From positions 972 through 64,971 of the forward strand of contig JBDRML010000045.1 in the NCBI GenBank assembly GCA_043812195.1: a stretch of 64,000 nt of DNA, read 5' to 3'. Position 1 is the first letter of the stretch. Every line of letters starts with the position of its first letter. The position numbers and the translations under genes were made by a program. The DNA is from Candidatus Woesearchaeota archaeon. Its GTDB lineage: Archaea > Nanobdellota > Nanobdellia > SCGC-AAA011-G17 > PNOQ01. Shown here piece by piece: positions 7,283 through 50,426 of the stretch. The notes under the pieces are model-generated. The model worked only from the letters and a program-made list of their open reading frames with translations. It had not been told where the DNA came from and searched no databases.

Positions 7283-8476
7283 ATGAATATTCTAAAGGAA
7301 ATAACACCATCTAACAAAGAAATAGAATTAAATAAAAAACTTCTAAAGTCATTCATATCAAAATTCAAACTAAAAGATATAAAATTAACACCTGGAGGTT
7401 CATATGCAAAAAACACATGGATATCAGGAAATATAGATATAGATATTTTTGCAAAATTCAATTATAAAAAATACGAAAATAAAGATATCTCAAAAGATCT
7501 TAAGAAAATACTATTAAAAAAATTTAAAAGAGTAAAAACAATCCACGGCTCAAGAGATTATTTCCATATCAAACAAAAAAATATAATTTTTGAAGTTGTA
7601 CCAGTATTGGATATTGAAAATCCCTCAAAAGCTAAAAACGTAATGGATGTTTCTCCCTTACATGTTAATTATGTAAAAAAACACACAAATAAAAAACTTC
7701 AAGATCAAATCAGAATCTTAAAACAATTTTGTAAAGCAAATGAGCTATATGGAGCTGAATCATACATTAAAGGTTTCTCAGGTTATGTACTAGAAATATT
7801 AATCATTTACTACAAATCTTTTAAAAATTTATTAACAGCAGCAAAAAGATGGAAATCCAAAACTATCATAGATCCCTCAAAATTTTATAAATCAAAAGAA
7901 GAACTCTTATCTCTATTAAATAAATCTAAAGCAGAATCTCCATTAATTCTAATAGATCCTGTTCAACCAAATAGAAACGCAGCAGCAGCATTAGGAAAAG
8001 AGAAATTCCAAAAATTATTAGAACTAGCAAAAATCTATGATAATTCAGAATCATTTTTTAAGAAAAAAGAAGTTGATATTAAAAAACTAAAAGGCTATTT
8101 AATTTTTAAAGTAGAACCTAAAGGAGGAAAATCCGACATCATAGGAGCAAAACTACTAACATCATTAGAAAGAATGAAAAAAGAATTCGAACAAAAAGAT
8201 TTTGAAGTTCAAGATTACGGTTGGAAATGGAATAAAGAAGCATACTTCTGGTTTAAAATTCCAAAATTATCAAAAACTAAAAAACACTACGGACCAGAAT
8301 TAAAAAGAAAGATGCACGTAAGAGCATTCAAACAAAGATGGAAAAGAACAAAAACAGAAAAAGGAATAATATATACAATAATAAAAAGAGAATTCACAGA
8401 CCCAAAACAATTTTCTAAAGTCCTAATAAAAAAAGATTTTATTAAAGAAAAATTAAGGAAGATTAGTTTAATTTAA
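7283..8476 (+). CDS. cca: Archaeal CCA-adding tRNA nucleotidyltransferase (class I)
   Basis: GGSYAKNTWISGNIDIDIF nucleotidyltransferase motif, length ~400 aa, archaeal CCA architecture. Confidence 0.8.
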   Translation: MNILKEITPSNKEIELNKKLLKSFISKFKLKDIKLTPGGSYAKNTWISGNIDIDIFAKFNYKKYENKDISKDLKKILLKKFKRVKTIHGSRDYFHIKQKNIIFEVVPVLDIENPSKAKNVMDVSPLHVNYVKKHTNKKLQDQIRILKQFCKANELYGAESYIKGFSGYVLEILIIYYKSFKNLLTAAKRWKSKTIIDPSKFYKSKEELLSLLNKSKAESPLILIDPVQPNRNAAAALGKEKFQKLLELAKIYDNSESFFKKKEVDIKKLKGYLIFKVEPKGGKSDIIGAKLLTSLERMKKEFEQKDFEVQDYGWKWNKEAYFWFKIPKLSKTKKHYGPELKRKMHVRAFKQRWKRTKTEKGIIYTIIKREFTDPKQFSKVLIKKDFIKEKLRKISLI

Positions 8477-23855: not shown

Positions 23856-27027
<3,172 letters not shown>

Positions 27028-32760: not shown

Positions 32761-33063
32761 ATGAAAAAAACAAAAAACTCAAAGGAACTAGAAAAAATCA
32801 AGAAGCCAATAATCAAAGTTTTAAAAAAATATAAAATTAAAAAGGCTGGAATATTCGGAAGTTTCGTAAGGAATGAGCAGAAAAAAAACAGCGATGTTGA
32901 TATTTTGATTCAACCAACAAAAGATATGAGCTTATTGTTGTTCATCCATGTAAAACATGAACTGGAAGATAAACTGCACAAAAAAATAGATTTGGTTAGT
33001 TATAAAGGCATTCATCCTCTACTTAAAAAACAGATACTGCAAGAGGAGGTAAAAATTATATGA
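32761..33063 (+). CDS. Nucleotidyltransferase (MntA-like antitoxin)
   Basis: GIFGSFVRNEQKKNSDVDILI GS...DxD motif. Confidence 0.75.
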   Translation: MKKTKNSKELEKIKKPIIKVLKKYKIKKAGIFGSFVRNEQKKNSDVDILIQPTKDMSLLLFIHVKHELEDKLHKKIDLVSYKGIHPLLKKQILQEEVKII

Positions 33064-33422
33064 AAAGAAGTTTAGATTTATTTATAAAAGATATATTAGA
33101 TAGTATAAAGAATATAGAAATTTTCATGAAAAATATTTCAAAAGAACATTTCCTTAAAAATAGAGAAAAGCAAAATGCAGTAATTAGAGAAATAGAAATA
33201 GTTGGAGAAGCTGTCAAAAACATTCCAAATTCTTTTAGGAGTAAATATCCTGATATTCCTTGGAGAGATATTTCTGGGATTAGAGATATAATAACTCACG
33301 GATATTTCAGAATAGATTTAGAAACGGTTTGGAAAGTAATAGAAGATGATCTTCCAGACTTAAAACAAAAAATAAAAAAAATAAAAAAAGATTTAGAGAA
33401 AGAAGAAAAGGATAAAAAATGA
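33060..33422 (+). CDS. HepT-like (DUF86) HEPN toxin
   Basis: RDIITHGYF Rx4HxY motif; overlaps the MNT gene by 4 nt. Confidence 0.75.
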   Translation: MKRSLDLFIKDILDSIKNIEIFMKNISKEHFLKNREKQNAVIREIEIVGEAVKNIPNSFRSKYPDIPWRDISGIRDIITHGYFRIDLETVWKVIEDDLPDLKQKIKKIKKDLEKEEKDKK

Positions 33423-33613: not shown

Positions 33614-33873
33614 TGAAAGAAATTAAAAAGGTATCACTAAAAAGCCTTATGCTCGTAACAGGTATATTGGGTTTATTAGTTGGTTTAGCTTATTCTGTTA
33701 TCTTTGGTGTATTATTAAGCTCATTAACAGGAATACCATCATCAACAGTTGGTGAAATAATCTATCTTACAATAGCTTTCGGAATTGGTTCAGCACTTAT
33801 GTGGCTAATTTATGGTATATTATATAATTACCTCGCAGTTCCATTAATTGGTGGAATAAAAATAGACATTTAA
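33610..33873 (+). CDS. Small membrane protein
   Basis: 87 aa, mostly hydrophobic helices. Confidence 0.4.
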   Translation: MMKEIKKVSLKSLMLVTGILGLLVGLAYSVIFGVLLSSLTGIPSSTVGEIIYLTIAFGIGSALMWLIYGILYNYLAVPLIGGIKIDI

Positions 33874-35129
33874 TTTTTCTTTATTTTTTTTACCAATTCT
33901 TTAAAATCCAACAAACACTCTTTCCCAGAATTCATATCTTTTAATTTAAACTTCTTCAATTTCAATTCTTTTTCTCCTAAAAATATAACATAAGGAATAT
34001 TCAATTTACTAGCATAATCTAAATTCTTACTAATACTTCTAGAATTAAAATCAATATCAGAATTAATTCCATTCTCTCTTAATTTTTCAACAATTTCAAA
34101 AGCTTTCTCTTTAATTCCAATAGGAATAACATATACCTTAACAATATTCTCAAATTTCTCTTTCTTCATAGCTAAAACAATCCTATCTAAACCAAATGAA
34201 ATTCCAACAGCAGGATACTCTCTTTTACCACCCAAGAAATTTCCAATCATATTATCATACCTTCCACCTGCAGCAACAGAAGTCTTAACTTCAGAATTTT
34301 TCAAATAAACTTCAAATACAGTTCCTGTATAATAACTCAAGCCCCTAGCTAAAGAAACATCAAAAACAAAATCCTTAGAATATTTCATCAATTCACTAAT
34401 TTCTTTTAATCCCTGACTCTCTCCAATTTCTCTTTTCAAAAAGTCTAATTTCTGTTTATTAGTTCCTTTAATAGAAATTAATTTCAATAATCTACTAATA
34501 GAAGTTTTACTAACACCCTTTTCCAATAATTCATCTTTAACTCCCTTATCATCAATCTTATCTAACTTATCAATACTTAATATCACACTATCAACTAAAT
34601 TCTTTTTAACATTACATCTTAAAATTATATCATCTAATATTTTTCTATTATTAACTCTAACAAAAACTTTCATGTCTAATTTCTTAAACACCAAATTAGC
34701 AATCTCAATAAACTCAGCATCAGCCATCATAGAACTAGTTCCAACCACATCGACATCACATTGATAAAACTGTCTTAATCTACTTGAAGTCAAAGGACCA
34801 TCTCTAAAAACATTACCAATTTCATATCTCTTAAAAGGCATCTTTAAAGTTGGATTCATACCAACAAATCTTGAAAAGGGAACTGTCAAATCATATCTCA
34901 AAGCCAAATCTCTTTTGCCTTGATCTTTTAATTTAAAGATTTCTCTCAATATTTCTTCTCCACCAGCATACTTAGAAGCCAACACATCAAATCTTTCTAC
35001 AATAGGAGTTTCCAAAGGATTATATCCATATAACTCAAAAACTTCTTTCAAAATAGAGATAACTCTCTCTCGTAAAATCTTCTCTTCAGGTTTAATATCC
35101 TTTACTCCCTTAGCTGTTTCTAGTTTCAT
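33870..35129 (-). CDS. hisS: Histidine--tRNA ligase
   Basis: Class II aaRS motifs and LALRYDLTVPFSRF; 419 aa. Confidence 0.9.
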   Translation of the reverse strand: MKLETAKGVKDIKPEEKILRERVISILKEVFELYGYNPLETPIVERFDVLASKYAGGEEILREIFKLKDQGKRDLALRYDLTVPFSRFVGMNPTLKMPFKRYEIGNVFRDGPLTSSRLRQFYQCDVDVVGTSSMMADAEFIEIANLVFKKLDMKVFVRVNNRKILDDIILRCNVKKNLVDSVILSIDKLDKIDDKGVKDELLEKGVSKTSISRLLKLISIKGTNKQKLDFLKREIGESQGLKEISELMKYSKDFVFDVSLARGLSYYTGTVFEVYLKNSEVKTSVAAGGRYDNMIGNFLGGKREYPAVGISFGLDRIVLAMKKEKFENIVKVYVIPIGIKEKAFEIVEKLRENGINSDIDFNSRSISKNLDYASKLNIPYVIFLGEKELKLKKFKLKDMNSGKECLLDFKELVKKIKKN

Positions 35130-35175
35130 AATATAAACTTAATATCTTAGCTTTAAATAAGTTTTGAAAAAAGTA

Positions 35176-35263
35176 GACGGTACGCGGGACTTTCGCCAAT
35201 TGGTATCGAACCCGCGATCTCACGGACCACAACCGTGTGTTTTGCCTCTAAACTAGCACCGTC
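35176..35263 (-). tRNA. tRNA-His (anticodon GTG) with encoded G-1 and a ~15-nt intron in the T-loop
   Basis: Minus-strand read: G-ACGGTGC-TA-GTTT-AGAGGCA-AAAC-A-CACGG-TTGTGGT-CCGTG-AGATC-GCGGG-TTCGATA[CCAATTGGCGAAAGT]CCCGC-GTACCGT-C. All stems pair, the anticodon is GTG, G-1 pairs with C73, and the T-loop is 22 nt instead of 7. Confidence 0.75.
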
Positions 35264-35298
35264 ATTACAATTCTAAGAGAAATAATTAATTTATAAAG

Positions 35299-36066
35299 CT
35301 ATCTTCTCAACCCAATTTTACGTAAAAAAGATCCAAAACCACTATCAACCTTTTCATCAAACTCAACACCCATTAAATCAGCAGCTAATTTCTTATACGC
35401 TATAGCACTCTTACTTTTAGGATGTGTATAAATAACAGGCTCTTTCATTTTCAAACTCTCTTTAACATATTTATCATATGGAATAATGCCAATAATATCT
35501 TTATCCAACATAGACTTAACAGCTTCCAATGTAAGACCTTCACCTTCACCAGATTTAGCTACTACAACACCACGAATATTTTTTCCCATTTCCTCAGCAA
35601 TTCTAATAGTTTTCAATGCATCAGTCACAGCTGGCAATTCAGAATTTGTAACAATAATAATATCATCAACTGCCCTCATAACAGCAAGGCACTCTTTTCC
35701 TAATCCAGCACTTCCATCAACTAAAACCACATCAGCCAATCCATCTAGATAAGGTAAAACTTTTCCAATATTATCGGGATTAGCACCTTTTAAATCAGCA
35801 ATAGAAATCCCAGCAGGAATAATTTTCAATCCAGAAGGATGTAAATAAACAGATTCACTCAAATGATTATTACCTTTCAAAACATCATGTAAAGATATAG
35901 GAACAACAGGAACTCCCAAATGTAAACCTAAATTAGGAGTACTTAAATTCCCATCAACAATAATAACATCACGACCAAAATAATTCATAGCACTTCCTAA
36001 ATTAACAACAGTAGTAGTTTTAGCAACACCACCCTTTCCGCTTAAAACACCAACAAATCTAGTCAA
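35299..36066 (-). CDS. minD: MinD/ParA-family ATPase
   Basis: Deviant Walker A GKGGVAKTT. Confidence 0.85.
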   Translation of the reverse strand: MTRFVGVLSGKGGVAKTTTVVNLGSAMNYFGRDVIIVDGNLSTPNLGLHLGVPVVPISLHDVLKGNNHLSESVYLHPSGLKIIPAGISIADLKGANPDNIGKVLPYLDGLADVVLVDGSAGLGKECLAVMRAVDDIIIVTNSELPAVTDALKTIRIAEEMGKNIRGVVVAKSGEGEGLTLEAVKSMLDKDIIGIIPYDKYVKESLKMKEPVIYTHPKSKSAIAYKKLAADLMGVEFDEKVDSGFGSFLRKIGLRR

Positions 36067-39665: not shown

Positions 39666-40607
39666 ATGAAACCAATTATCTGGAGTCCAAGCAGAATCTC
39701 ATTAGCATCTCAATGCCTTAAAGCATATTTTTACAATTACCTCTCAAAAGAAAAATTCCCAACAAATGGAGAATTTGCAGCAGGGGTTCTATTACATAGA
39801 AAAATGGAAAAATTCTACAAAGAAGACAGAACCCCAAAATACAAATCCCCAGAATCATTCGCAAACGCATCTATGGCTCAATGGCAAAGATTTAATATTA
39901 ATACAGGAAAAAGCAGAGGGCAACCAATAAGATGGAGAAGTGAGAATCACCCATATATACTAAAACATATGATAGGAGAAGCTTGTAAAACAGTATACCC
40001 AGCATATGCTAATCAACAACCACCAATAGAAACAGAGTTTTCATTTGAGTTTTGTTTTGGCAATAGATTTTACAGAGGAAGTATAGATGAAATAAGAAAT
40101 AATGCAACTATAAGAGATCATAAATCAGACGGATTTGAAAGACCACAGACCTCACTAGATAATGATATTCAATTCACTAATTATGCCTTAGCAATATCTC
40201 AATATCTTTACGCAGATAAAAAACTTAGGAAAAAAGTTAATATATCAAAAGAATTAAAAGAAGAAATAAAAAATAAAGAAAAAATTATCTTACCAATAGG
40301 TATAGAAATCCATTATTTAAGAACAGGTAATATAAAAACAACAACAAGAAATGACTCACATTATTATGAACTAACAGAGATAATAGATGAACTAGAAGAA
40401 CAAATAAGAAGAAGAAATTTCAAAAGAAACCTTGGTAAACATTGTGACTTCTGTCTTTTCAATGAAGCTTGTGCAAGAGATACAAAACAATCAAATATTA
40501 CAATCCCCGAAAACCCACAATTACAATTATTTGCAACTTCAGAACCAAAACCAAAAAATATCAAGCAATTAAGATTATCATTTCCAAGAAAATCAAAAAA
40601 AGTGTAG
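39666..40607 (+). CDS. PD-(D/E)XK nuclease of the Cas4/RecB family (stand-alone)
   Basis: SPSRISLASQCLKAYFYNYL N-terminus and a C-terminal Cys cluster GKHCDFCLFNEAC. Its stop codon lies inside the left 14-bp direct repeat. Confidence 0.6.
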   Translation: MKPIIWSPSRISLASQCLKAYFYNYLSKEKFPTNGEFAAGVLLHRKMEKFYKEDRTPKYKSPESFANASMAQWQRFNINTGKSRGQPIRWRSENHPYILKHMIGEACKTVYPAYANQQPPIETEFSFEFCFGNRFYRGSIDEIRNNATIRDHKSDGFERPQTSLDNDIQFTNYALAISQYLYADKKLRKKVNISKELKEEIKNKEKIILPIGIEIHYLRTGNIKTTTRNDSHYYELTEIIDELEEQIRRRNFKRNLGKHCDFCLFNEACARDTKQSNITIPENPQLQLFATSEPKPKNIKQLRLSFPRKSKKV

Positions 40608-40616
40608 GCAAGTGTA
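40603..40616. repeat. Left 14-bp direct repeat GTAGGCAAGTGTAA (partial copy of the rnpB 3' end); putative attL
   Basis: Identical 14-mer occurs at 52548..52561, where it forms the 3' end of the RNase P RNA gene. Confidence 0.65.
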
Positions 40617-40705
40617 ACCTCTAAAGTAGTTTATACTTCTTTTGTATATTATAGTAATTTAGTTAATTATATAAATATTTCTGTTAGTATTAAAAGGGGT
40701 TAGAA

Positions 40706-41521
40706 ATGATAAAATGGATAATTGCTGTGATTATTGCACTTCTTGTAGTTAGTTATATTGTTTCCCCAGAACAAAGATTTGAGATAGAACGATTTTTTAA
40801 GAATTTAGGTGAAGATATAAAAAATGTGAAAATAGATACGCCAATAGTTTCAAGCTGTGAAAAAAATGCTATAGAAATGACCCCAAAATATTGGCTTACC
40901 CATGACTCAAATGCTTACTGGGGATATTATTCACGTGCTGGTGATTGGGGCTATGGAAATTTTCCAACCCCATATAATATTGTTTTCCCGCATCTTAATA
41001 AATGGAATGATGGAAACATCATTAGGCTAAATTTAGATGATTATACAAGAGCTGGTTTTGGAAGTGGGGAGAATATAAACTATAGATATTATAATGATAA
41101 AGATAATTTAGAGTATAGTAAAGATATTATTGATAAAAACGGATTAGTTTTAGGGACTAATCATTTTGGAATTAGCCCAGTTTTTAAAGTTAATGATAAT
41201 TTTGAAAGCCCAACCTATACGTGGTGGGAAGATACTGAACTTTCAATCTTACATTTTAATTATTCAGGATTTAACAAAAATATTAAAAAGATGTTAGATA
41301 CTGACAAGTTTGAAATAATTGTTAAATGCGACAAAATAGGACGAGAAGAAGAAATTTGCAGAGAAGAATTTAGTCAAGAAGAGGGAGATTTTGATTGTGA
41401 TTATAGTTCCTACGATAATTGTATAAGTATTTTTTCTGAAACAGAACCAGATATATTTAACAATTTAGTTTATGAAATTATAGAATATAATATTAAAAAT
41501 TGTGAATGGGTAAAACAATGA
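40706..41521 (+). CDS. Membrane-anchored hypothetical protein (element-borne)
   Basis: N-terminal TM helix; W/Y/G-rich extracellular domain. Confidence 0.45.
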   Translation: MIKWIIAVIIALLVVSYIVSPEQRFEIERFFKNLGEDIKNVKIDTPIVSSCEKNAIEMTPKYWLTHDSNAYWGYYSRAGDWGYGNFPTPYNIVFPHLNKWNDGNIIRLNLDDYTRAGFGSGENINYRYYNDKDNLEYSKDIIDKNGLVLGTNHFGISPVFKVNDNFESPTYTWWEDTELSILHFNYSGFNKNIKKMLDTDKFEIIVKCDKIGREEEICREEFSQEEGDFDCDYSSYDNCISIFSETEPDIFNNLVYEIIEYNIKNCEWVKQ

Positions 41522-41682
41522 AAGGAAAAATAGAACTAACAAGGAAAATACAAAGAATAGGTAACTCTCTTTGTGTAGTCTTACCTAAACAAATTGCACA
41601 ATTAAAAGGATGGAAACCTAAGGATTCGGTTTCTATTGTTTTGAATGAAAGGGGTGAATTGATTATAAGGGAAGTGAAATAG
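41518..41682 (+). CDS. AbrB/MazE (SpoVT-AbrB) family DNA-binding protein, 54 aa
   Basis: Hand-translated as MKGKIELTRKIQRIGNSLCVVLPKQIAQLKGWKPKDSVSIVLNERGELIIREVK. The GNSLxVxLPK swapped-hairpin motif is present, and the start overlaps the upstream stop (ATGA). Confidence 0.6.
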   Translation: MKGKIELTRKIQRIGNSLCVVLPKQIAQLKGWKPKDSVSIVLNERGELIIREVK

Positions 41683-41712
41683 ATGGAAAAACATAGAAAT
41701 TGCATGGGTTAG

Positions 41713-41931
41713 ATGGTAAAATCAACATTAAACAAATTAGAAAGAAAGATGATGATTTTGGGTATCTCTGGAGGCCTTATAGTTTATATCAGCATCGTGC
41801 TTGGAGAATTAATTGGATGGGTTCTCGGCGTAGAAAAATCTATCTTTTATTTTTCAGCTATAAAAATTATTTGTTCAATTTTTATAACATATCTTATTTA
41901 TTTGATTGTTGTATATAGAAGAAATAAATAA
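41713..41931 (+). CDS. Small two-TM membrane protein
   Basis: 72 aa, hydrophobic. Confidence 0.4.
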   Translation: MVKSTLNKLERKMMILGISGGLIVYISIVLGELIGWVLGVEKSIFYFSAIKIICSIFITYLIYLIVVYRRNK

Positions 41932-41941
41932 ATAGACTAAA

Positions 41942-42442
41942 ATGAAGATTGATAATGTTATCAAGGGGGATGGTATTAAACTTGAATTTTTAACTTACGA
42001 TTTAATAAGAATAAAAGATATATTAAGAAATAAATTTATTGGAATTATAGAATGTAATAAAGATTTAGAAGTTATTAGTTTATGGTTTTCTGACATTGTG
42101 CCAGATGGATTCTCAATGAAAAAATCAATCATTGAAAAATGGAATATGAAAAAAATAGAGTTGAAAGAAAAACAAAAAGTTTGTCCCGATTGTAAAAAAA
42201 ACTGGTTAGAAGTTATTTGTGTATTGCACCACAAAAACAAAAATCAAGAGATTGACAAACTTACAAGAATTAGTTTAGAAATTGAAAAAAGAATATTAAA
42301 AGGGTATCTTAGTATTTTTGTAGGTTATAATCTATATAAAGATGCCGTAGCAAAATATGTTAAATACTACAAATCATTAAAAGACACTAAAATACTTTGC
42401 TGGAATTGTCATGGATTAGAACACCAATTAAAAAAACCATAA
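41942..42442 (+). CDS. HNH-motif nuclease-like protein
   Basis: CPDC...VLHHKNKN...CWNCHGLEH forms the CxxC / HH / CxxCH arrangement. Confidence 0.45.
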   Translation: MKIDNVIKGDGIKLEFLTYDLIRIKDILRNKFIGIIECNKDLEVISLWFSDIVPDGFSMKKSIIEKWNMKKIELKEKQKVCPDCKKNWLEVICVLHHKNKNQEIDKLTRISLEIEKRILKGYLSIFVGYNLYKDAVAKYVKYYKSLKDTKILCWNCHGLEHQLKKP

Positions 42443-42490
42443 TTTTGGTAGAATTAATTCCACACCCTTCCCACTATAAATAAAAATAAA

Positions 42491-42757
42491 TCAAAGAATT
42501 ACTGCAGTAGCAATATTAGAACCAGCAGAGGTCAATAATGAAACAACACTTCCTTCCAAATTTAATGTTTCTCCAGTTTTTGAAGGGTGCCTAATACTTA
42601 AACCTGCTGTAGTTGAAAATGAAGCGTGTCCTTTTGCTTTTCCAAAATTTTGATTCCCATAATATATTTCTGTTCTTTTGGGTTCTTCTAATTTATTTTG
42701 TTGTGTAACAAATAATCCTTCCTTTCTTATTAATGAATATCTATTCTTTTTAGCCAT
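42491..42757 (-). CDS. Hypothetical protein
   Basis: 88-aa ORF. Confidence 0.3.
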   Translation of the reverse strand: MAKKNRYSLIRKEGLFVTQQNKLEEPKRTEIYYGNQNFGKAKGHASFSTTAGLSIRHPSKTGETLNLEGSVVSLLTSAGSNIATAVIL

Positions 42758-42760
42758 TTT

Positions 42761-42991
42761 TTATTTACACTTGCAATAAGGCAATCCTGAATTTGCTTTA
42801 AGGTAGGCTAATCTTTGGCTGATAACATTCAAACCTCCGCATTTCTTACATGCCAATCTTTTAGCTTCCTTTAATTTTTCTTGATCTTCTCTTTTATCTT
42901 CCTCTCTTTCTTTTACTATCTTCTCTTTCTCTATCTTCTTTAGCTCTTCTCTTATAAGCTTTCTAATTTCAGTTTTTGTTGCTTGATCCAT
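42761..42991 (-). CDS. Hypothetical zinc-ribbon protein
   Basis: Charged helix followed by CKKCGG...CKCK. Confidence 0.35.
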   Translation of the reverse strand: MDQATKTEIRKLIREELKKIEKEKIVKEREEDKREDQEKLKEAKRLACKKCGGLNVISQRLAYLKANSGLPYCKCK

Positions 42992-43105
42992 TATGTATAA
43001 AATACCTTATCAAAAAAAGAACCTATTTCTATATAAATAACTTACTGTATAAAATAGAAGTGTAAATTAGACAGATTTATAAGATTTAGAATTCTTCGAT
43101 TAAAC

Positions 43106-43660
43106 ATGTCAAAAACAAAAATTCCCAATACAAAAAGAGTTCAGATATTAAATAGAGATGGAAATAAATGCTTATGGTGTGGTAGTAGTGTAGTTGACGG
43201 TGTAAGATTAGAAGTTGATCATATTATTTCAGAACATTTTGGGGGTTCTTCGGACTTAGATAATTTAGGAACTTTGTGTAATTTATGTAATAGTGGCAAA
43301 AGTAGTGAATATTACGGAAACTATCTTTTATCAACTGTTCTTAATGTTCAGAATATTTGGGATAGAATTAAAAAGTTTTCAAAAGAAGACCCAGGCATTT
43401 GCTTCAATTATACTTGGCGTTTAGATTTTTATAAATTTGATGGAATTGGATTCCAAGAAGATAAAATTTTACATCAGTTTTCTATTGATTCTAATATTGC
43501 TGAGTTTAAAGATAAAAGTGCTAATATGGAAATACAATTTAGAGAAGCAGTAAAAAAAGCTTCGTTAGATTTCAAAAACTTAGTTAAGAATTTTCTTTTT
43601 GAAAATAAGGGGTTCTTTGAACTTTCAGGGGAAAAACTAGTATTTAAAAAATGGGAATAA
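43106..43660 (+). CDS. HNH endonuclease
   Basis: CLWCGSS...EVDHIISEHFGGSSDLDNLGTLCNLCN is the canonical HNH motif. Confidence 0.7.
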   Translation: MSKTKIPNTKRVQILNRDGNKCLWCGSSVVDGVRLEVDHIISEHFGGSSDLDNLGTLCNLCNSGKSSEYYGNYLLSTVLNVQNIWDRIKKFSKEDPGICFNYTWRLDFYKFDGIGFQEDKILHQFSIDSNIAEFKDKSANMEIQFREAVKKASLDFKNLVKNFLFENKGFFELSGEKLVFKKWE

Positions 43661-43938
43661 AGAAACTAATTAAAAGTAAGGGGAAGAAGATTATTATCCA
43701 AGGTTTAATCTTTTGGTATTTAATTCCTTATATCATATATTTAAAGGACGCAACCGTTTTTATTTTTGATAAAAATATCAATAGATTTACTGAAGGTTTC
43801 GTGAAGGTTTTACTTTCAACTGTTATACACCCAGTTATATCTTTTTTTATGAACCCTCTTAAAATGCTTGGAGAAATACTCTTAGCCATATTATTTGTTT
43901 TCTTAATTTATTATTTAATTGAATGGCTAAGAGAATAG
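43651..43938 (+). CDS. Small membrane protein
   Basis: 95 aa with three hydrophobic helices. Confidence 0.4.
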   Translation: MGIKKLIKSKGKKIIIQGLIFWYLIPYIIYLKDATVFIFDKNINRFTEGFVKVLLSTVIHPVISFFMNPLKMLGEILLAILFVFLIYYLIEWLRE

Positions 43939-43975
43939 AAACAAATTGATAACTACATTTATTTTTAATAGCACC

Positions 43976-44131
43976 TTATTTCTTTCCAGTAAATAATTTT
44001 CTTAAAGCAAAATTAACTACTTGAGCCCTGCTTCTTAAATCTAATTCAGGATGCCCTTTAATATAAACATCAATAGATTTAGCCAACCCTTCGGGAATAC
44101 TAACATTCACATATCTAATTCTTTTGGGCAT
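43976..44131 (-). CDS. Ribbon-helix-helix (CopG/Arc-like) protein, 51 aa
   Basis: Hand-translated as MPKRIRYVNVSIPEGLAKSIDVYIKGHPELDLRSRAQVVNFALRKLFTGKK, a typical RHH beta-strand plus two helices. Confidence 0.55.
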   Translation of the reverse strand: MPKRIRYVNVSIPEGLAKSIDVYIKGHPELDLRSRAQVVNFALRKLFTGKK

Positions 44132-44218
44132 TTTATTCATTTAATATTAAACGACAGGTTTATATATGAGTTTTCACTTAATATTAAATGATTATTATAC
44201 GGGTGTTTTTAAATTAAA

Positions 44219-44875
44219 ATGGGTGCGAAACGTGTGGTGAAAGGTATTATCTTTATACTTGGATTCTTTGTATTCATATGGATATTTTGGATTTTATCAT
44301 TTTTTCTTTTTGGTTCATATGGGGGTATCCAGACTATTATATCTACACTCATTCTTTCATTAATCGTCTTAATTGCTTTAGTAAACATATGGAGAAAAGG
44401 TTTCAAGAAAATTAAACCCAAATCAATTTTAGTATATATTTTCGTTTCCCTATCAATTGTTTTATTAATTACCAGTATTAGTGCGTTTTCACAGATTAAA
44501 GAAAAGGATGAAGAACTTGATGATTATAGATTCTATTACAGTGCATTAACTTGTTTTGATGGCGATCAATTAATGTATCTTCCTAAGTATACTGAATATG
44601 GACGCAAATGGCTTGATTATAATTCACACAAAGAAGTTTCTTTTAAAATGACTGCCGATTATAGTATCAGTCGGCATACCTGTGAGGAAGAATTTGAGAG
44701 GCAAGGTTATATGGTTGAAGATCCCTATGATAATTTAGAATATCCATTTAAAATCGGTTCTCTTAAAAATTTTGCATGTGAAATTATTTGGGTTAACAAG
44801 CTTGGATTAGATGGAGGTTTAGAGTATGGATGTAAGTGTGAATACATCGCAGATGATAGTGATCCATCAACATAA
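44219..44875 (+). CDS. Polytopic membrane protein with C-terminal Cys-containing domain
   Basis: 218 aa; 3-4 TM helices followed by a soluble domain. Confidence 0.45.
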   Translation: MGAKRVVKGIIFILGFFVFIWIFWILSFFLFGSYGGIQTIISTLILSLIVLIALVNIWRKGFKKIKPKSILVYIFVSLSIVLLITSISAFSQIKEKDEELDDYRFYYSALTCFDGDQLMYLPKYTEYGRKWLDYNSHKEVSFKMTADYSISRHTCEEEFERQGYMVEDPYDNLEYPFKIGSLKNFACEIIWVNKLGLDGGLEYGCKCEYIADDSDPST

Positions 44876-45077
44876 AATGAAGATAAAGATTGTAATTATG
44901 ATGCTATTAATGTTTATTATTGGTTTTGGCATTATTATTAGTGGATGTACAATCTCTAATGAAGCAAAATGCGAAATTGAATATAAATCGTGTGTTCACG
45001 ATTGCGGGGAAGGTATTTTAAGTAGTATATGTAAAGAAAAATGTACCTATGACCGTAAACAATGTTTGGATAAATAA
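44826..45077 (+). CDS. Small Cys-rich secreted/membrane protein
   Basis: TM/signal segment followed by 6 Cys in 45 residues. Confidence 0.4.
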   Translation: MDVSVNTSQMIVIHQHKMKIKIVIMMLLMFIIGFGIIISGCTISNEAKCEIEYKSCVHDCGEGILSSICKEKCTYDRKQCLDK

Positions 45078-45099
45078 CTAATATTAAGAGGTACGAAAT

Positions 45100-45432
45100 T
45101 TGAAAGGAGGTGAAAATGGCAAGATGAAGAAATTAATTCTAATTGGATTATTTTTAGTGATGATTGCTTTTGTAGTATTCTCTCAAACTGATGATATGCA
45201 ACAATCCCCAGAGTTATCTAACATAAGACTCTCAAAAGGTGTGGATTGTGAAGTGATTTGTAATGGCGGATGTGCACCAGCTCCAGATGGTTGGAATTTG
45301 ACTGAGAATATAGGAACATCTGGTGGGTGGTCTTCAAATGGGGCTGGCGGTAGATGTGCTTGGTCTGTAAATGAAAATGGATGGCAATATTATCCAGGCG
45401 TAGAAAGGATGTGTTGTTATTTCCAAAATTAA
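45100..45432 (+). CDS. Small Cys-rich secreted protein
   Basis: Signal peptide; CEVICNGGC...GGRCAW...MCCY. Confidence 0.45.
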   Translation: MKGGENGKMKKLILIGLFLVMIAFVVFSQTDDMQQSPELSNIRLSKGVDCEVICNGGCAPAPDGWNLTENIGTSGGWSSNGAGGRCAWSVNENGWQYYPGVERMCCYFQN

Positions 45433-46034
45433 TTTTTTCTTTTATTTTCATTTTCATACAACCGATTATAAAGCGTTTGGTGATTCAACCCTAATTCCTT
45501 AGCAACATCCCTTAAGCTTCTCCCTTTATCCAGTTCAGCCTTAGCATAATGCTCATTAAATTTAACTTTATTCCTTCCCCATTTCCCCCTTTCTTTTATA
45601 GCTCTGGCTACACCATCCTTAACTCTTTCAGCTATTATGCTTCTTTCAAACTGAGCAAAACCTGAAACAATAGTAAAAAAGAACTCTCCCATAGCTGAAG
45701 TTGTATCTATGTTTTCATTATAGGAAACAAAATCAATACCTAAAGCCTTAAACTCATCTAAAGTTGTAAGCAGATGTTTTGATGATCTTCCAAATCTATC
45801 ATAGCGATAAACTAAGCAAACATCAAACTTTCTTTTTCTTGCGTCATCCATTAATTTATTTAGTTCTGGTCTTGATTCCTTAGCTCCAGATATTCCCTTA
45901 TCAATATATTTCTTAAAGACTTTCCAGCCTCTCTTCTTGCAGTAATCGGCTAAAAGACTATCTTGGGTTTTGATATCCTGTTTATCCTTTGTGCTTACAC
46001 GCATGTAAACCCCAGCAGTTTTATTTTGTTTCAT
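45429..46034 (-). CDS. Serine recombinase (resolvase/invertase family)
   Basis: VYMRVSTKDKQD catalytic Ser region, resolvase core and C-terminal HTH. Confidence 0.85.
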   Translation of the reverse strand: MKQNKTAGVYMRVSTKDKQDIKTQDSLLADYCKKRGWKVFKKYIDKGISGAKESRPELNKLMDDARKRKFDVCLVYRYDRFGRSSKHLLTTLDEFKALGIDFVSYNENIDTTSAMGEFFFTIVSGFAQFERSIIAERVKDGVARAIKERGKWGRNKVKFNEHYAKAELDKGRSLRDVAKELGLNHQTLYNRLYENENKRKN

Positions 46035-46058
46035 TCTTCAGATACAACCTCCTTTTTG

Positions 46059-46502
46059 TTATCTACATCCTTTGGAAACTTCGTAGTTATACGAGGTTTG
46101 TAATAATTCTTTTTGCATCTCTTTAGGAGCTTTTGTAATTTCCATGCCTGTTGTTAATGGTATTTCCTTTCTCTCTATTGCTTTTTGTATTTCTTTAGGA
46201 GCTTTTTCTAACATTAAAACTTGTCTAATCCATCCCTCTGAACATCCAATTCTTCTTGCTACTTCTCTAAATCCACCTTTTTTACCACGACCGCCTTGAA
46301 ACTGCGTATCACTACGCATTAATTTCTTTATAGCTTCTCTTTGGTCGTGGATTGTCATTGATTGTCTTGCTACTTCTGAATAACCTTTTGAGGGTCTCCC
46401 TTCTCCCCCTCTACCTCTTATTGAATCAGTTTTCGTAGCACTACGAATACTCAATAACTTTTTTATAGCTTCTCTTTGGTCGTTTATTTTTACATCAGTC
46501 AT
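46059..46502 (-). CDS. ParB-like HTH protein with an internal tandem repeat
   Basis: VARRIGCSEGWIRQVLMLEKAPKEIQKAI is ParB/Spo0J HTH-like. The segment DQREAIKKL...GRG...EVAR occurs twice, mirrored by a ~25-bp DNA repeat at ~46322 and ~46462. Confidence 0.45.
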   Translation of the reverse strand: MTDVKINDQREAIKKLLSIRSATKTDSIRGRGGEGRPSKGYSEVARQSMTIHDQREAIKKLMRSDTQFQGGRGKKGGFREVARRIGCSEGWIRQVLMLEKAPKEIQKAIERKEIPLTTGMEITKAPKEMQKELLQTSYNYEVSKGCR

Positions 46503-46679
46503 ATTCTAATCTCTTATTTTCTTGTTTAATCCTACCAAATTCTTTCAAATTCTTGAACCCCGACCCCTGCTACCTGCCTCCAAACATTTTTATGTTAGTA
46601 TCATATTATATTTATAGCAAACCATAACGTTTGCCCAAACATCCCACAAATTATTTGTTTATTAATTAATTTATTTTTA

Positions 46680-47063
46680 TTAATCATTTCTCAAAACCTT
46701 ATAAGCCCTGTATTGCTTTTTTCTCCAGTTGCGCTTGCTTATTTCATAAGCTCTGCCATCTTGAAAATTAATTAAGATTACAGAACAATTCCATAATTCT
46801 TGATGCTTGTAATCACTGAATCTTCCCCCTATCCAGTAATATCCATCATCACCATCAAATTCTTTTCCTATTATTTCTTCCAAAAAACATACAAGATCAT
46901 AAATTGTTTTTATTTTTAGATATTCATTATAATATTTGCTATCCATATTAATAATTAAACTGTCCTGCACATCAATACATTCGGCTGGAAAATTCTTGTG
47001 CCCTTTTCTCTTTTTTCTAAATGGGCAGATTCTTATTCCTAGTTCTTTGCTCCATTCTTTCAT
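46680..47063 (-). CDS. Hypothetical protein (element-borne)
   Basis: 127-aa ORF. Confidence 0.35.
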   Translation of the reverse strand: MKEWSKELGIRICPFRKKRKGHKNFPAECIDVQDSLIINMDSKYYNEYLKIKTIYDLVCFLEEIIGKEFDGDDGYYWIGGRFSDYKHQELWNCSVILINFQDGRAYEISKRNWRKKQYRAYKVLRND

Positions 47064-47590
47064 GATCTCACCTTTTCTTTAATTAATATATTCCATGCAA
47101 AATTCTTTTCTGGTTTTTTAAGATTTAATCTATCAATTGGTTCTATTACAACTGGCAACCATCTGGGTTTGGAATATGTTGCACCTTGTTGATTTCTGTA
47201 ATGTTTGCCTTTATACTTAATTAATTTTATTTTATCATTTCCTTTTTCATGCTTTTTTAAATTACATTTCCTGAAAAAAATCCTTCTCTCATCCAGTAGT
47301 TCCCAAAACGATTGTTTAAATTCTTTTGAAACATTACCGCACAAATAAAGGTTTAAATTTGGAAATCCTATAAATTCATTGCCTTTATCATTTAAATGCT
47401 CTTTTAATTTGTGAAAAGTTGGTTTTTTATTATTTACAATAAATTTTATCATTGATTGTTTTATTTGTTCTATATTCTTTTTCATGTTTCTGTACCTCCT
47501 TCTTTTTCTTTTTTGTTTCCTATAAGCCCAATCAAAACTAAAACAAAGGCTAAAATTCCTAGAATGTAATATGCAATCAACAGCATCCAA
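47060..47590 (-). CDS. Hypothetical basic protein (element-borne)
   Basis: 176-aa ORF; the true start is probably the internal MKKNIEQ. Confidence 0.35.
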   Translation of the reverse strand: MDAVDCILHSRNFSLCFSFDWAYRKQKRKRRRYRNMKKNIEQIKQSMIKFIVNNKKPTFHKLKEHLNDKGNEFIGFPNLNLYLCGNVSKEFKQSFWELLDERRIFFRKCNLKKHEKGNDKIKLIKYKGKHYRNQQGATYSKPRWLPVVIEPIDRLNLKKPEKNFAWNILIKEKVRS

Positions 47591-47703
47591 TTTGATTTTA
47601 TGATTGTGTTAAACTCTTCAATTATATACGAAAATGCCAAGATTATGCTGGCTAACCAGAACAAAAACATTAATGCTATTCCAAACCAAAAAATCGGTTT
47701 CAC
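47482..47703 (-). CDS. Small membrane protein
   Basis: 73 aa with two TM helices. Confidence 0.35.
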   Translation of the reverse strand: MKPIFWFGIALMFLFWLASIILAFSYIIEEFNTIIKSNWMLLIAYYILGILAFVLVLIGLIGNKKEKEGGTET

Positions 47704-47939
47704 TCTTCAACCCTCAGAAAACCAAGCAAAGATTCAAATATAATTTCTTTGTGTTTATCCTTTTCAACATACATGTTCAATTCTGTTTTCCCAATTTCCA
47801 ATTCCTTTGAATTTTTGAGTGAATGCAATGTTATGAGAAAAAAAGCATTGCTGTCTTTAATCTGTTTTACAGCTTCTTCTTTTGCTTTTGCTATATTCTT
47901 TTCTGTTGATTTTATTTCCCAGAATGTTTTGTATTTCAC
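47700..47939 (-). CDS. Hypothetical protein
   Basis: 79-aa ORF. Confidence 0.3.
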   Translation of the reverse strand: MKYKTFWEIKSTEKNIAKAKEEAVKQIKDSNAFFLITLHSLKNSKELEIGKTELNMYVEKDKHKEIIFESLLGFLRVEE

Positions 47940-47984
47940 TTATTGTACCTCCTTGCTATCTTTTTTGTACAAAAATATCGGGAT

Positions 47985-48262
47985 ACTCAATTGTGCTTTT
48001 GGCACGTGGCTGGCTGACCATGAGATACCCCGATATCTCAGATCTGAGATTATGAACCAGCCACTACAAGGGAGAAGTAGAGGCTGGAAATGGGTTATGT
48101 AATTGATGGCAAGCATTAGATTATAAGCCCACTTCATCGGAGGTGAAGGCTGACAAAACCTATTTCTCAATGAAGCAGGCTTAGGATGTAGCCTGAAAAA
48201 AAGTGAAAGTGGCAAATCCTTCCACTTAACAGGACTACCCCACATGCGAGTATTAATATGAG
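47985..48262. ncRNA. Candidate structured non-coding RNA of unknown class (GC-rich, multiple hairpins) inside the element
   Basis: GC well above the flanks. Complementary pairs include GTGGCTGG/CCAGCCAC, palindromic TCTCAGATCTGAGA, CAGGCT/AGCCTG, AAGTGG/CCACTT and ATATCGGG/CCCGATAT. Overlapping ORFs translate to P/W/S-rich low-quality peptides. Confidence 0.4.
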
Positions 48263-48264
48263 TT

Positions 48265-48450
48265 TTAGGTGTCATCATCTATCTCCTTATTAAAAACGGC
48301 GTTAACACTATTCTTTAGCTCTTTTTTGGCGATTAATTGTTGTTTAACCCAATACTTGTAACGGCATGAATCTGAGCAAAAGCGTGCATTTCTCTGGCTC
48401 CAAGAATCTATTTTTTTCGAACAATTTAAGCAAAATCCAACATTTACCAT
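48265..48450 (-). CDS. Small zinc-ribbon protein
   Basis: CLNCSKK...CSDSCRYKYW. Confidence 0.4.
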   Translation of the reverse strand: MVNVGFCLNCSKKIDSWSQRNARFCSDSCRYKYWVKQQLIAKKELKNSVNAVFNKEIDDDT

Positions 48451-48477
48451 TTTGATTTTTTATACTTAAATAAGAAA

Positions 48478-48540
48478 ACACCCTGACAACCCTGACAATC
48501 CTGACATTTGCGTCAACCTTGTCAACCTTGTCAACCTATT
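48478..48540. repeat. Iteron array: 3 x CC(C/T)TGACAA, then 3 x TTGTCAACC in inverted orientation, at 9-bp spacing
   Basis: Sequence acaCCCTGACAACCCTGACAATCCTGACATttgcgTCAACCTTGTCAACCTTGTCAACCtatt lies immediately 3' of the primase-helicase gene. Confidence 0.7.
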
Positions 48541-48547
48541 TCCTAAT

Positions 48548-50119
48548 TTAAAGTCTTTGGACGTCACCCCCATTTTCGCTTTTTTGATGCTTTATTCCTT
48601 TCCAGCATTGTACTCTTTGCTTAATTCCTTCAATCTCTAATTGCGGTCTGTAATCTTCGACTCTAATACTTCTTTGCAAATCCCTATGAAATGTGCCCTC
48701 TGAAAGTGGTGGATAACTCTTTTCCCTACAATAATCAGTGTAATGTGTAAACAATTCTCTTTTTTGCTCAAACGATTCAGGTGAAATCTTTATACAATCC
48801 ATAATAAATGCCTTTACACTATCGGACATTCGAATATATTCTTCTCTAACTTCCTTCACTGATTTTGCAGTACTGAAATCTTTGTTATCCAAAAGTCTCT
48901 TCAAACCGATAATAGCCCAATTTAAAATTCCAGATAACTCAGATTCTGTTGTTAATTTTGATAATAAATCCTTGTTAGCACTAGATCCGATAAATTGATT
49001 TGGAAAATTGATTATGATCCATCTTCTAAAAAATGCATCCGAATCATCGGGAGTTTTAGGAACTGCATTACAACTAAAAATCAATTTTGCGTAATTATCA
49101 AAGAAAAACTCATCCTTAAATTTTCTTTCTGCTCGTATGCTGTCCTCTCCTGTCAATGCTTTAAATATTCCAGTTTCTTTCAGCTCCGCTGAGGATAAAT
49201 CAGCATAAATATTAGCTAATTTCCCAAACAAAGATGACACCGAAAACCGATTTATACACAGTTGTTGCAAAGGTATTGCACTAATATTCTGATTTCCTAA
49301 AAAATATCGTAATACATTCAACAAAGTAGATTTACCGTTTGCCCCAACACCAACAAACATTATAGCTTTATGAATATTATATTTTTTGAATAATACATAA
49401 CCAAAAATTTCCTGAATTATATTATGTGTATCCTCTGGCAAAATCTGTTTTAAAAATTCTTCAAACTTATTGCATTTAGATTCTGAATCAAAATCCACAG
49501 GTATTTTGTTGAAAAATATTATATCAAAGTTATGTGGCTCTACTTCCATTGTATTTAAATCCAAAATCCCATTATTCAAACATATCTTATAAATCGGTTC
49601 AACAATTTTAATTCTATTTTTGTATGATGATCTCCTAATATGTGCCAACGTTTCATTTACAACGTGAATCGACGATAATCCACCAAGCCCTTTTTGAATA
49701 AATTGTGCAATTTTAATTTCTCCATAAGGAACATAAACACCACTTTCATAAACAAAAATCTCATCTGTGTCCTGAACAGTAAACAAATAAAATTTATTCA
49801 TACAAAGGGCAGATAGCCTATACAAAGCCTCTGAATTTTTTGTGTCTTTAGCATTCAACATGGATTTTATTTTTTGGAATTCCTGCTGTACACTTTCTTG
49901 AACATCATCTGCTTCAAGAGAATCCAATATTTTATCAAAGTCTATAAAAAAACCATCAGTTTTTTCATTTAATATATTTACCTGATGCATTAAATCATCT
50001 TCACTTTTTGCAAATCTTATTTTGTTTCTAATTCTATTTCTTTCTGAAACTGCCCATTCCCTAGTATGGGGTAATATTTTATTTTCAACAATTTGTTTTA
50101 TCTGAATCAAATCTGCCAT
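48548..50119 (-). CDS. D5-like / P4-type primase C-terminal domain + SF3 helicase (replication initiator)
   Basis: Walker A VGVGANGKST, a Walker B region and overall primase_Cterm/D5_N-like architecture; 523 aa. Confidence 0.75.
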   Translation of the reverse strand: MADLIQIKQIVENKILPHTREWAVSERNRIRNKIRFAKSEDDLMHQVNILNEKTDGFFIDFDKILDSLEADDVQESVQQEFQKIKSMLNAKDTKNSEALYRLSALCMNKFYLFTVQDTDEIFVYESGVYVPYGEIKIAQFIQKGLGGLSSIHVVNETLAHIRRSSYKNRIKIVEPIYKICLNNGILDLNTMEVEPHNFDIIFFNKIPVDFDSESKCNKFEEFLKQILPEDTHNIIQEIFGYVLFKKYNIHKAIMFVGVGANGKSTLLNVLRYFLGNQNISAIPLQQLCINRFSVSSLFGKLANIYADLSSAELKETGIFKALTGEDSIRAERKFKDEFFFDNYAKLIFSCNAVPKTPDDSDAFFRRWIIINFPNQFIGSSANKDLLSKLTTESELSGILNWAIIGLKRLLDNKDFSTAKSVKEVREEYIRMSDSVKAFIMDCIKISPESFEQKRELFTHYTDYCREKSYPPLSEGTFHRDLQRSIRVEDYRPQLEIEGIKQRVQCWKGIKHQKSENGGDVQRL

Positions 50120-50426
50120 TTTTCACCTTATTTTTTAAGAATAAATCAATATCAATAAGCTGTGTTACGCCCCTCAATCTACACTTCTTTTTATCACACT
50201 TTGTAAGCCCGCCAAAAGAATTTAACAAGCTTCCACAACTTGAACATTTTCTTAATTTTAAAATAAAATTTGTAAGGTTATCTTTATCTAAAATAAAAAA
50301 TTGATTTGAAATCTGCAAAAGAGACCTTAAAACATCTGAAATTGATAGGTCTGTCTCTGTTTTTAGCTCATTTATAAAAATCCTATCTTCTCTTTCAACC
50401 CTAAAATTTATTAGTTGTTTTACCAT
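50085..50426 (-). CDS. Hypothetical Cys-containing protein
   Basis: 113 aa; CSSCGS...CDKKKC. Confidence 0.35.
   Translation of the reverse strand: MVKQLINFRVEREDRIFINELKTETDLSISDVLRSLLQISNQFFILDKDNLTNFILKLRKCSSCGSLLNSFGGLTKCDKKKCRLRGVTQLIDIDLFLKNKVKNGRFDSDKTNC

Follow-up and report, generated by a model that had tools for sequence, protein, structure and literature searches.

The 64-kb stretch of Candidatus Woesearchaeota DNA analyzed here (64,000 nucleotides [nt], called the window below) very probably contains a functional, spliced gene for tRNA-His(GUG) that is interrupted at tRNA position 59/60 by a 15-nt archaeal intron of the bulge-helix-bulge (BHB) type, in a low-GC woesearchaeotal genome. 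This reading is carried by the sequence of the gene, its fold, the cloverleaf that is restored by splicing in silico, a match to the tRNA-His family, and an intronless ortholog in a relative. The gene and its parts, in window positions, are as follows.

35176..35263, minus strand: tRNA-His(GUG) gene (sequence, minimum-free-energy [MFE] cloverleaf, covariance model R1, ARAGORN after splicing)
35205..35263, minus strand: 5' exon, G-1 to U59, with the anticodon (BHB-predicted cut AU/A, the slash marking the cut; model alignment)
35190..35204, minus strand: intron, 15 nt, ACCAATTGGCGAAAG, at tRNA position 59/60 (fold, in-silico splicing, shuffle controls, model alignment; identical in loci L076 and L077, absent in L078)
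35176..35189, minus strand: 3' exon, U60 to C73 (fold, in-silico splicing, model alignment)
35184..35215, minus strand: BHB motif (unconstrained MFE and centroid folds, shuffle controls)

Read on the minus strand from 35263 to 35176, the complete gene is GACGGTGCTAGTTTAGAGGCAAAACACACGGTTGTGGTCCGTGAGATCGCGGGTTCGATACCAATTGGCGAAAGTCCCGCGTACCGTC, 88 nt long with its intron. Every tRNA-His element named in the original prediction, an earlier reading of this DNA, is present at its expected place. G-1 (35263) pairs with the discriminator C73 (35176), the acceptor stem ACGGTGC/GTACCGT has 7 base pairs (bp) including one G-U, the D-stem is GTTT/AAAC, and the anticodon arm has a 5-bp stem (CACGG/CCGTG) and a 7-nt loop (TTGTGGT) with the anticodon GTG at 35230..35228. 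The T-stem, GCGGG/CCCGC, encloses a loop of 22 nt as opposed to the usual 7. The conserved tertiary positions are all kept (U8, A14, G18G19, G15:C48, U33, G53:C61, U54U55C56, A58, and G-1:C73). CCA is not encoded at the 3' end, consistent with which the window holds a gene for a CCA-adding enzyme (7283-8476). The region forms an island of 54% GC in a genome of about 29% GC (29 to 32% across most of the window).

When the 88-nt precursor is folded without constraints, its MFE structure (-30.3 kcal/mol) is a cloverleaf with an extended T-arm, and the centroid structure has the same T-arm. The outer helix of this arm (h) is the 5-bp T-stem, GCGGG (35215-35211) with CCCGC (35188-35184); the 4-bp central helix pairs UUCG at positions 54 to 57 (35210-35207) with CGAA of the insert (35195-35192); two 3-nt bulges lie on opposite strands, AUA (35206-35204) on the 5' side and AGU (35191-35189) on the 3' side; and the inner hairpin is CC(AAUU)GG (35203-35196), where the palindrome CCAATTGG noticed in the original prediction is indeed located (35203..35196). 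This is the strict 3-4-3 form of the motif (hBHBh', after its flanking helices h and h'), with two opposed 3-nt bulges and a 4-bp helix between them, so that the motif on which the original prediction had staked the intron does form at 59/60. Marck and Grosjean are said to have asked, in 2003, for flanking helices of at least about 2 bp each; here h has 5 bp and h', with CC/GG, has 2 bp, just long enough. The BHB in the insert is more than chance: strict 3-4-3 motifs form in 0.33% of shuffles of the insert and in 0.29% of random 15-mers of 30% GC, and the motif is the MFE fold in 16 of 2,000 insert shuffles.

Cuts after the second nucleotide of each bulge (AU/A and AG/U) define the intron as ACCAATTGGCGAAAG and leave the T-loop TTCGATT (UUCGAUU in RNA). 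The loop had previously been parsed as TTCGATA followed by the insert, which gave the correct length of 15 nt and a junction shifted by one base relative to the BHB cuts. U60 is invariant among 23 DPANN tRNA-His genes, favoring the junction defined by the BHB. The 73-nt product that in-silico excision of the intron leaves is called as tRNA-His(gtg) by ARAGORN, and its T-loop is the same as that of the intronless gene in L078.

The match to the tRNA-His family comes from covariance model R1, built from 23 intronless, ARAGORN-called tRNA-His genes of DPANN loci with the window sequence left out; R1 took the place of a home-made, intron-tolerant acceptor-stem finder, whose output was mostly spurious AT-rich pairings. 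The model aligns end to end (positions 1-75) with 35263..35174 of the window at 60.2 bits (E ~1e-14), compared with 45.2 bits for the tRNA-Ala of the window and 46 to 55 bits for tRNA-Glu genes in the loci. Immediately behind GGGUUCGAU, i.e., after position 59, the alignment has 16 nt at a place for which the model expects 1. The 22-nt T-loop interrupted at 59/60, as originally proposed, is therefore borne out by the BHB fold, the ARAGORN call after splicing, the R1 alignment, and the intronless gene in L078.

General gene finders do not call the locus. ARAGORN reports only the tRNA-Ala of the rRNA operon in the window, and the intron search suggested with the original prediction (option -i, for anticodon-loop introns) returns nothing at the tRNA-His locus, the gene being recognized as tRNA-His only as the spliced 73-mer. 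The Rfam tRNA model gives a partial match there (25 bits, model positions 8-63; gathering score, 29), and a sensitive Rfam scan across the window found no further tRNA. The statement that standard scanners miss such genes holds for ARAGORN and for the Rfam gathering threshold. The archaeal mode of tRNAscan-SE 2.0 is built to find such introns: it searches for noncanonical BHB introns by default, with intron models trained on Crenarchaeota/Euryarchaeota and on Thaumarchaeota (PMC8450103). Other GC islands were considered as hidden tRNAs and rejected; those at 15150, 24757, and 45263 overlap open reading frames (ORFs) of the greedy ORF set, that at 47977 has no Rfam match, and none is tRNA-like.

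The histidyl-tRNA synthetase (HisRS, gene hisS) of the window assigns the organism to Candidatus Woesearchaeota; it is 100% identical to a protein of an NCBI Woesearchaeota metagenome-assembled genome (MAG), and species-representative genomes reach at best 55%. Related hisS loci, given here with their HisRS identities, carry the following tRNA-His genes.

L076 (ENA ERZ27247117) and L077 (JGI 3300015370), ~100%: same tRNA-His with an identical 15-nt insert; L076 has one single-nucleotide polymorphism (SNP) in the variable loop
L078, 70%: same MinD-tRNAHis-hisS order; intronless, T-loop TTCGATT
L079, 62%: 14-nt insert at 37/38
L072, 41%: 15-nt insert at 37/38
L086, 61%: 14-nt insert at 37/38
L082, 62%: 30-nt insert at 32/33
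L084, 60%: 24-nt insert at 32/33
L075 and L033, 40%: inserts at 37/38, of 52 nt and 96 nt
L003, 55%: several inserts
L088, 61%: intronless
L087 (1304-1448), 61%: three inserts, ~22 nt at 32/33, ~19 nt at 37/38, and 30 nt at 59/60

To judge from its sequence, L078 offers a natural control with which the predicted spliced product can be compared. The 59/60 insert of L087 is unrelated in sequence to the window intron. The same cut rule turns its T-loop into TCCGATT, which is the T-loop of L086, and its motif is relaxed, with a U:U in the central helix and a 5' bulge that can pair. BHB-type inserts thus occur at many positions of this gene in the lineage, which has made use of 59/60 at least twice. 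The window intron looks lineage-specific, by recent gain or by loss in L078, and the routine interruption of orthologous tRNA-His genes implies a lineage with the machinery to splice them.

Some further observations concern these inserts. The three in L087 equal the known maximum per archaeal tRNA gene, and its close relatives L088 and L086 have none and one, respectively. In L003, the tRNA-His candidate directly 5' of hisS (3857-3980) has an insert of ~24 nt past the anticodon and extra sequence in the D-arm region; R1 aligns with its 3' two-thirds only, at 27 bits, and it probably contains more than one intron. An intronless tRNA-His of L017 has a T-arm, GCGGGTTCGATTCCCGC, identical to that of the window gene. 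Within the window, the sole near match to the intron is a 15-mer with 2 mismatches in an integrase gene, at 51536, which was considered as a transposed copy and judged to be a chance match; there is no sign of intron transposition within the window.

From these data we infer a path to the mature tRNA that would involve two putative transcription signals.

35290..35297, minus strand: TATA-like box TTTATAAA, putative tRNA-His promoter, ~30 nt 5' of G-1 and right after the stop codon of the MinD/ParA-like gene (archaeal promoter consensus)
35167..35172, minus strand: T6 run, putative oligo-T terminator of tRNA-His, 3 nt past C73 (read from the sequence)

The gene would be transcribed from its own TATA box TTTATAAA (35297..35290), with transcription ending at the T6 run (35172..35167). 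In the precursor, U54 to G57 would pair with CGAA at the intron's 3' end, extending the T-stem into the strict hBHBh' motif; because these positions stay base paired until the intron is removed, the tRNA elbow could not form before splicing. The splicing endonuclease EndA would then cut at AU/A and AG/U, and an RtcB-type ligase would join the exons, bringing back the 7-nt T-loop UUCGAUU and allowing the D-loop/T-loop elbow to form. RNase P would leave the encoded G-1, the 3' end would be trimmed, and the CCA-adding enzyme, whose gene lies at 7283..8476, would supply CCA. The strict 3-4-3 hBHBh' motif is a substrate of the archaeal splicing endonuclease (PMC3239211, PMC5829648), and since the motif here is strict, any type of EndA should be able to cut the precursor. 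EndA has been reported in DPANN lineages (PMC5829648), and Kaneta et al., whose survey included one Woesearchaeota and one Pacearchaeota genome, described alpha4-type L3-loop EndAs in multiple DPANN lineages, associated with raised tRNA gene disruption (PMC5829648).

Several points weigh against a spliced, functional gene. Splicing of this tRNA-His is deduced from sequence; neither EndA nor RtcB turned up when 77 ORFs of the 64-kb window were searched with Pfam; the intron occurs in only three near-identical assemblies, representing one population, with no covariation support for the BHB helix; the inner helix h' has only 2 bp (CC/GG), closing a 4-nt loop; and the z-score of the whole-precursor fold is only -1.46, a modest value that in our view is not evidence against the BHB structure. 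In addition, a second tRNA-His was assessed within the 64-kb window only. This last point bears on the possibility that the locus is an inactive or decaying pseudogene, with a random 15-nt insertion in its T-loop and a functional copy elsewhere in the genome. The failure of ARAGORN and the Rfam gathering threshold to call the locus would fit such a pseudogene, as would the small portion of the genome that is visible (64 kb) and the coexistence of two tRNA-His copies upstream of hisS in L022 and L017. However, the insert forms a strict BHB, as only 0.3 to 0.8% of random inserts do; the conserved tRNA positions are all intact and the model match is full length, so that within the 64-kb window the degenerate copy beside a second gene that the original prediction had named as its counterevidence is not what is found; the gene occupies the same orthologous slot as the intronless gene of L078; its TATA and T-run signals are kept; and its sequence is identical in three assemblies. 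Moreover, a metagenome scan with a 24-mer of the 5' exon found only the known JGI contig and no intronless allele, paralog, or intermediate relative. On this evidence a pseudogene is unlikely.

Retention of the 15 nt, giving a mature tRNA with an expanded 22-nt T-loop or an extra mini-hairpin, is very unlikely. In its favor, splicing is a prediction from sequence, and DPANN tRNAs have other oddities, such as the U:U acceptor mismatches of relatives; but a retained insert would sequester U54 to G57 with CGAA and so block the universal T-loop/D-loop interaction, its geometry exactly matches a known endonuclease substrate (PMC3239211), and all 23 aligned tRNA-His genes of relatives have 7-nt T-loops, which the intron-bearing relatives regain once their inserts are removed. 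Creation of the insert by an assembly or sequencing artifact, which might be suspected because the source is a MAG, has next to no credibility: the same 15 nt are found in the window (NCBI MAG), in ENA ERZ27247117, and in JGI 3300015370, one of them with a nearby SNP, and the identity of the insert in three separately assembled records rules out an assembly artifact. A spliced tRNA-His gene with a BHB intron thus remains our preferred reading.

The surroundings of the gene form a second subject, for which three more features are needed.

33870..35129, minus strand: hisS, histidyl-tRNA synthetase, 419 amino acids (Pfam tRNA-synt_His, E=1.2e-41; HGTP_anticodon, E=3.9e-18)
35299..36066, minus strand: MinD/ParA-like P-loop ATPase gene, 5' of tRNA-His (Pfam CbiA and ParA; synteny)
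35152..35160, minus strand: TATA-like box TTATTTAAA (inside AAAACTTATTTAAAG), putative hisS promoter, centered ~27 nt before the ATG (read from the sequence)

As stated in the original prediction, the tRNA-His gene lies directly 5' of hisS, which starts 46 nt past C73 on the same strand, and the order MinD-tRNAHis-hisS is common to the window, L076, L077, and L078. Of the archaeal (DPANN) loci, 41 offer usable upstream sequence, and 24 of these 41 have a tRNA-His on the same strand within 2 kb upstream of hisS, 14 of them within 160 nt, compared with 0 of the 31 bacterial loci from the same query. The arrangement is also present in 7 of 7 further relatives with usable upstream sequence (L078, L079, L082, L084, L086, L087, and L088). 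It is not universal, being absent from L001, L002, L004, L006, L069, and the Aenigmatarchaeota loci. For a single-copy gene in a DPANN genome assumed to measure ~1 Mb, adjacency in 24 of 41 loci is far beyond chance and thus marks a conserved trait of the group; as read from these sequences, the placement of tRNA-His beside hisS appears to be ancestral and is widespread among these archaea.

The junctions between the two genes are of two types. Type 1 (window, L078, L022, L027, L035, and L040) has a T-run and then AAAAC-TTATTTAAA, ~25 nt ahead of the ATG, which suggests an independent, leaderless hisS transcript. The AAAACTTATTTAAA motif is kept before hisS in L078, with similar motifs in L022, L027, L035, and L040, and TTTATAAA recurs in L078 at a similar distance from its tRNA-His. 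In type 2 (L005, L079, L003, L084, L059, and L072), the spacer is 2 to 26 nt long, in some cases with a Shine-Dalgarno-like GAGGTG; such spacers leave no room for a promoter, suggesting that the two genes of these relatives are co-transcribed. The T6 run and the TATA-like box within the 46-nt spacer of the window suggest separate transcription units, so that, by its sequence signals, this spacer is not the terminator- and promoter-free junction that co-transcription would call for. The coupled unit once proposed for the pair therefore finds support as a linkage conserved across DPANN relatives and is not borne out as an operon within the window.

The intron positions at this locus among close relatives comprise 32/33, 37/38, 59/60, and a site in the D region, with 0 to 3 introns per gene. 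A joint reading of linkage and introns, which we offer only tentatively, is that tRNA-His and hisS are an ancient pair in Woesearchaeota, Pacearchaeota, and Nanoarchaeota, that many lineages make them as one tRNA-mRNA precursor, and that the locus is a hot spot of BHB-intron turnover. If so, the 5' end of hisS mRNA would arise when the tRNA is processed at its 3' end, which would tie the output of the synthetase to its substrate, and the locus would be a natural series for intron gain and loss outside Thermoproteales. It is a speculative addition that the T-loop intron disrupts a site favored by integrases, partial 3'-end duplicates in L016 and L038 hinting at such targeting. We found no paper on tRNA-His/hisS synteny in archaea or on a synteny-anchored series of intron positions, and both may be new.

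Sequences next to hisS and tRNA-His in relatives show several other features. In L082 (967-2004) and L083, a 345-amino-acid ORF with a weak LAGLIDADG_3 match lies between tRNA-His and hisS, and in L082 the GAGGTGAT motif still adjoins tRNA-His; in L078 (1737-1961), a 74-amino-acid ORF is inserted between the two genes. A motif shared by L079 (1760-1800), L082 (655-690), and L084 (1-35), GAGTTACAARATGACTGGTGGTTRTATTCA (TTGTCACAAAATGGCAAGTGGTTGTATTCA in L084), stands ~110 to 140 nt upstream of tRNA-His and may represent a further small RNA or an element close to the promoter. Two different tandem tRNA-His genes precede hisS in L022 (3646-3720 and 3882-3955) and in L017 (189-262 and 1780-1853), the hisS-proximal gene of L022 (acceptor GACGGTG...) resembling the window gene. 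Many tRNA-His genes of the Pacearchaeota or Nanoarchaeota type (L013, L015, L016, L019, L031, L032, L034, L036, L038, and L043) have the acceptor CYTYCGC opposite GCGRTTG, implying U:U mismatches around 5:68 and 6:67, and have T, not C, as discriminator opposite G-1, which is unusual for tRNA-His identity rules. The partial second tRNA-His 3' ends in L016 (~3860-3885, CTCCTTCCGCTTTC) and L038 (~3975-3990, CTCCTTTCGCTTTC) are placed 100 to 150 nt downstream of the full gene, before hisS, and could be attachment-site remnants of elements that target tRNA-His.

Upstream sequences lacking tRNA-His also have structure. A conserved hisS leader of ~95 nt occurs in L018, L020, and L023 (each at 3900-4003), in L024 (2010-2114), and, more weakly, in L012; L018, L020, L023, and L024 (uncultured archaeon, Aenigmatarchaeota) have no tRNA-His upstream of hisS. 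The leader consists of a TATA element (YATTTAAA), then YTGTGRTWAAAGTGAA-CGGCGRTTTAC-TTCAC, then CTAGTCCTATTTCTAAAAATAAAG, and then the ATG. Its start resembles the anticodon loop of tRNA-His (TTGTGGT or CTGTGAT), and a 5-bp hairpin lies within it. To judge from these few, highly similar sequences, the leader may be cis-regulatory. In L001, the closest species-representative genome, a ~57-nt tandem repeat in three copies (TAAATCATTATCCAAATTCAAAATATTGACATATGCCATGAATGTTGTTGTTTTTTG) lies upstream of hisS (45-215), and its 305 nt of upstream sequence contain no tRNA-His.

Beyond this locus, the window carries archaeal rRNA genes (16S and 23S) and a gene for an archaeal RNase P RNA. The 23S rRNA gene (57453-61378, minus strand) exceeds the Rfam model by ~940 nt and holds a group I intron at 59170-59481 (Intron_gpI, 82.6 bits); introns of this group have already been described from Woesearchaeota rRNA (PMC6125680). 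An integrated element of ~11.9 kb (40604-52561) is flanked by a direct repeat of 14 nt with identical copies, GTAGGCAAGTGTAA (40604-40617 and 52548-52561); the repeat corresponds to the 3' end of the gene for RNase P RNA (52847..52548, minus strand). Beside the 3' end of RNase P RNA the element encodes a tyrosine integrase (51283-52482), and its cargo also includes a D5_N/DUF5906 primase-helicase, a resolvase, a ParB-HTH protein, and an HNH nuclease. From these sequences, the RNase P RNA gene appears to serve the element as attachment site, as tRNA genes do for others. Inside the element lies a strongly self-complementary, GC-rich (at least 50%) island of 100 nt (47977-48077), for which the predicted folding energy over 161 nt is -46 to -49 kcal/mol on either strand. 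The island lacks an Rfam match, and none of its overlapping ORFs has a Pfam match; it may be a small RNA borne by the element or an origin of replication.

Among protein-coding genes, a LAGLIDADG_2 homing-endonuclease-like ORF (26035-26853, minus strand; E=2.5e-40) lies directly upstream of gyrB (24162-26042), overlapping its start, and appears to be free-standing rather than borne by an intein or intron. An MNT/HepT-like toxin-antitoxin pair (nucleotidyltransferase/HepT, 32761-33422) is situated between ScpA and small ORFs downstream of hisS; its presence in L076 and L077 and absence from the same place in L078 make a recent insertion likely. A second HEPN/NTP_transf_2 pair is found at 16102-17131, and the window further encodes the termination factor FttA/aCPSF1 (9915-11816) and an IS240-type DDE transposase (4013-4885).

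Because both ARAGORN and the Rfam gathering threshold miss the gene, the genome would seem to be without tRNA-His. Annotation of DPANN MAGs by such tools can be expected to undercount tRNAs and to misjudge completeness or auxotrophy, and the same point on incomplete DPANN tRNA sets has been made before (PMC5829648). The gene provides Woesearchaeota with a clean example of a strict BHB at 59/60, with an intronless ortholog as natural control. The synteny-anchored intron series in its relatives suggests that tRNA-intron turnover like that of Thermoproteales also operates in this DPANN clade, and the tRNA-His/hisS linkage adds a small, apparently undescribed regularity.

Set beside known systems, the locus resembles dicistronic tRNA-mRNA units in that the cognate tRNA is immediately 5' of the synthetase gene on the same strand, with spacers of 2 to 26 nt in several relatives, and differs from them in the T6 run and TATA box between the genes of the window. 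With the introns of Thermoproteales and other Crenarchaeota (Sugahara et al. 2008 and Marck and Grosjean 2003, via PMC3239211, PMC6379350, and PMC8450103), it shares short BHB introns outside 37/38, no more than 3 introns per gene, and rapid gain and loss; in contrast to the strict window intron, those are found in TACK hosts with an (alpha-beta)2 EndA bearing a Crenarchaea-specific loop, and many of their motifs are relaxed. The canonical intron at 37/38 has the same local geometry, i.e., a 5-bp stem, a 4-bp exon-intron helix, two 3-nt bulges, and cuts past the second bulge nucleotide, so that, on the modeled fold, 59/60 may be viewed as holding the place in the T-arm that 37/38 holds in the anticodon arm. 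The two differ in what they conceal, the window intron sequestering U54 to G57 and blocking the elbow and the 37/38 type masking the anticodon loop.

T-loop introns have been described for archaea in general (PMC3241643, PMC6379350), and the closest parallels are in ARMAN-2 (Candidatus Micrarchaeum, DPANN). There, tRNA-Cys(GCA) has a 13-nt intron at 59/60 with a relaxed motif (hBH), which the cognate endonuclease was able to cleave in vitro (Fujishima et al. 2011, PMC3239211), and tRNA-Pro(GGG) has strict introns at 53/54 and 59/60 (PMC3239211). The window intron shares with these the insertion point, the superphylum, a length similar to that of the tRNA-Cys intron (13 nt), and, with the tRNA-Pro intron, the strict hBHBh' form. 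It differs in isoacceptor (Pro and Cys there, His here) and in lineage, being from Woesearchaeota; the EndA of ARMAN-2 is of the epsilon2 type. The intron described here is an addition to the 59/60 BHB introns already documented in DPANN.

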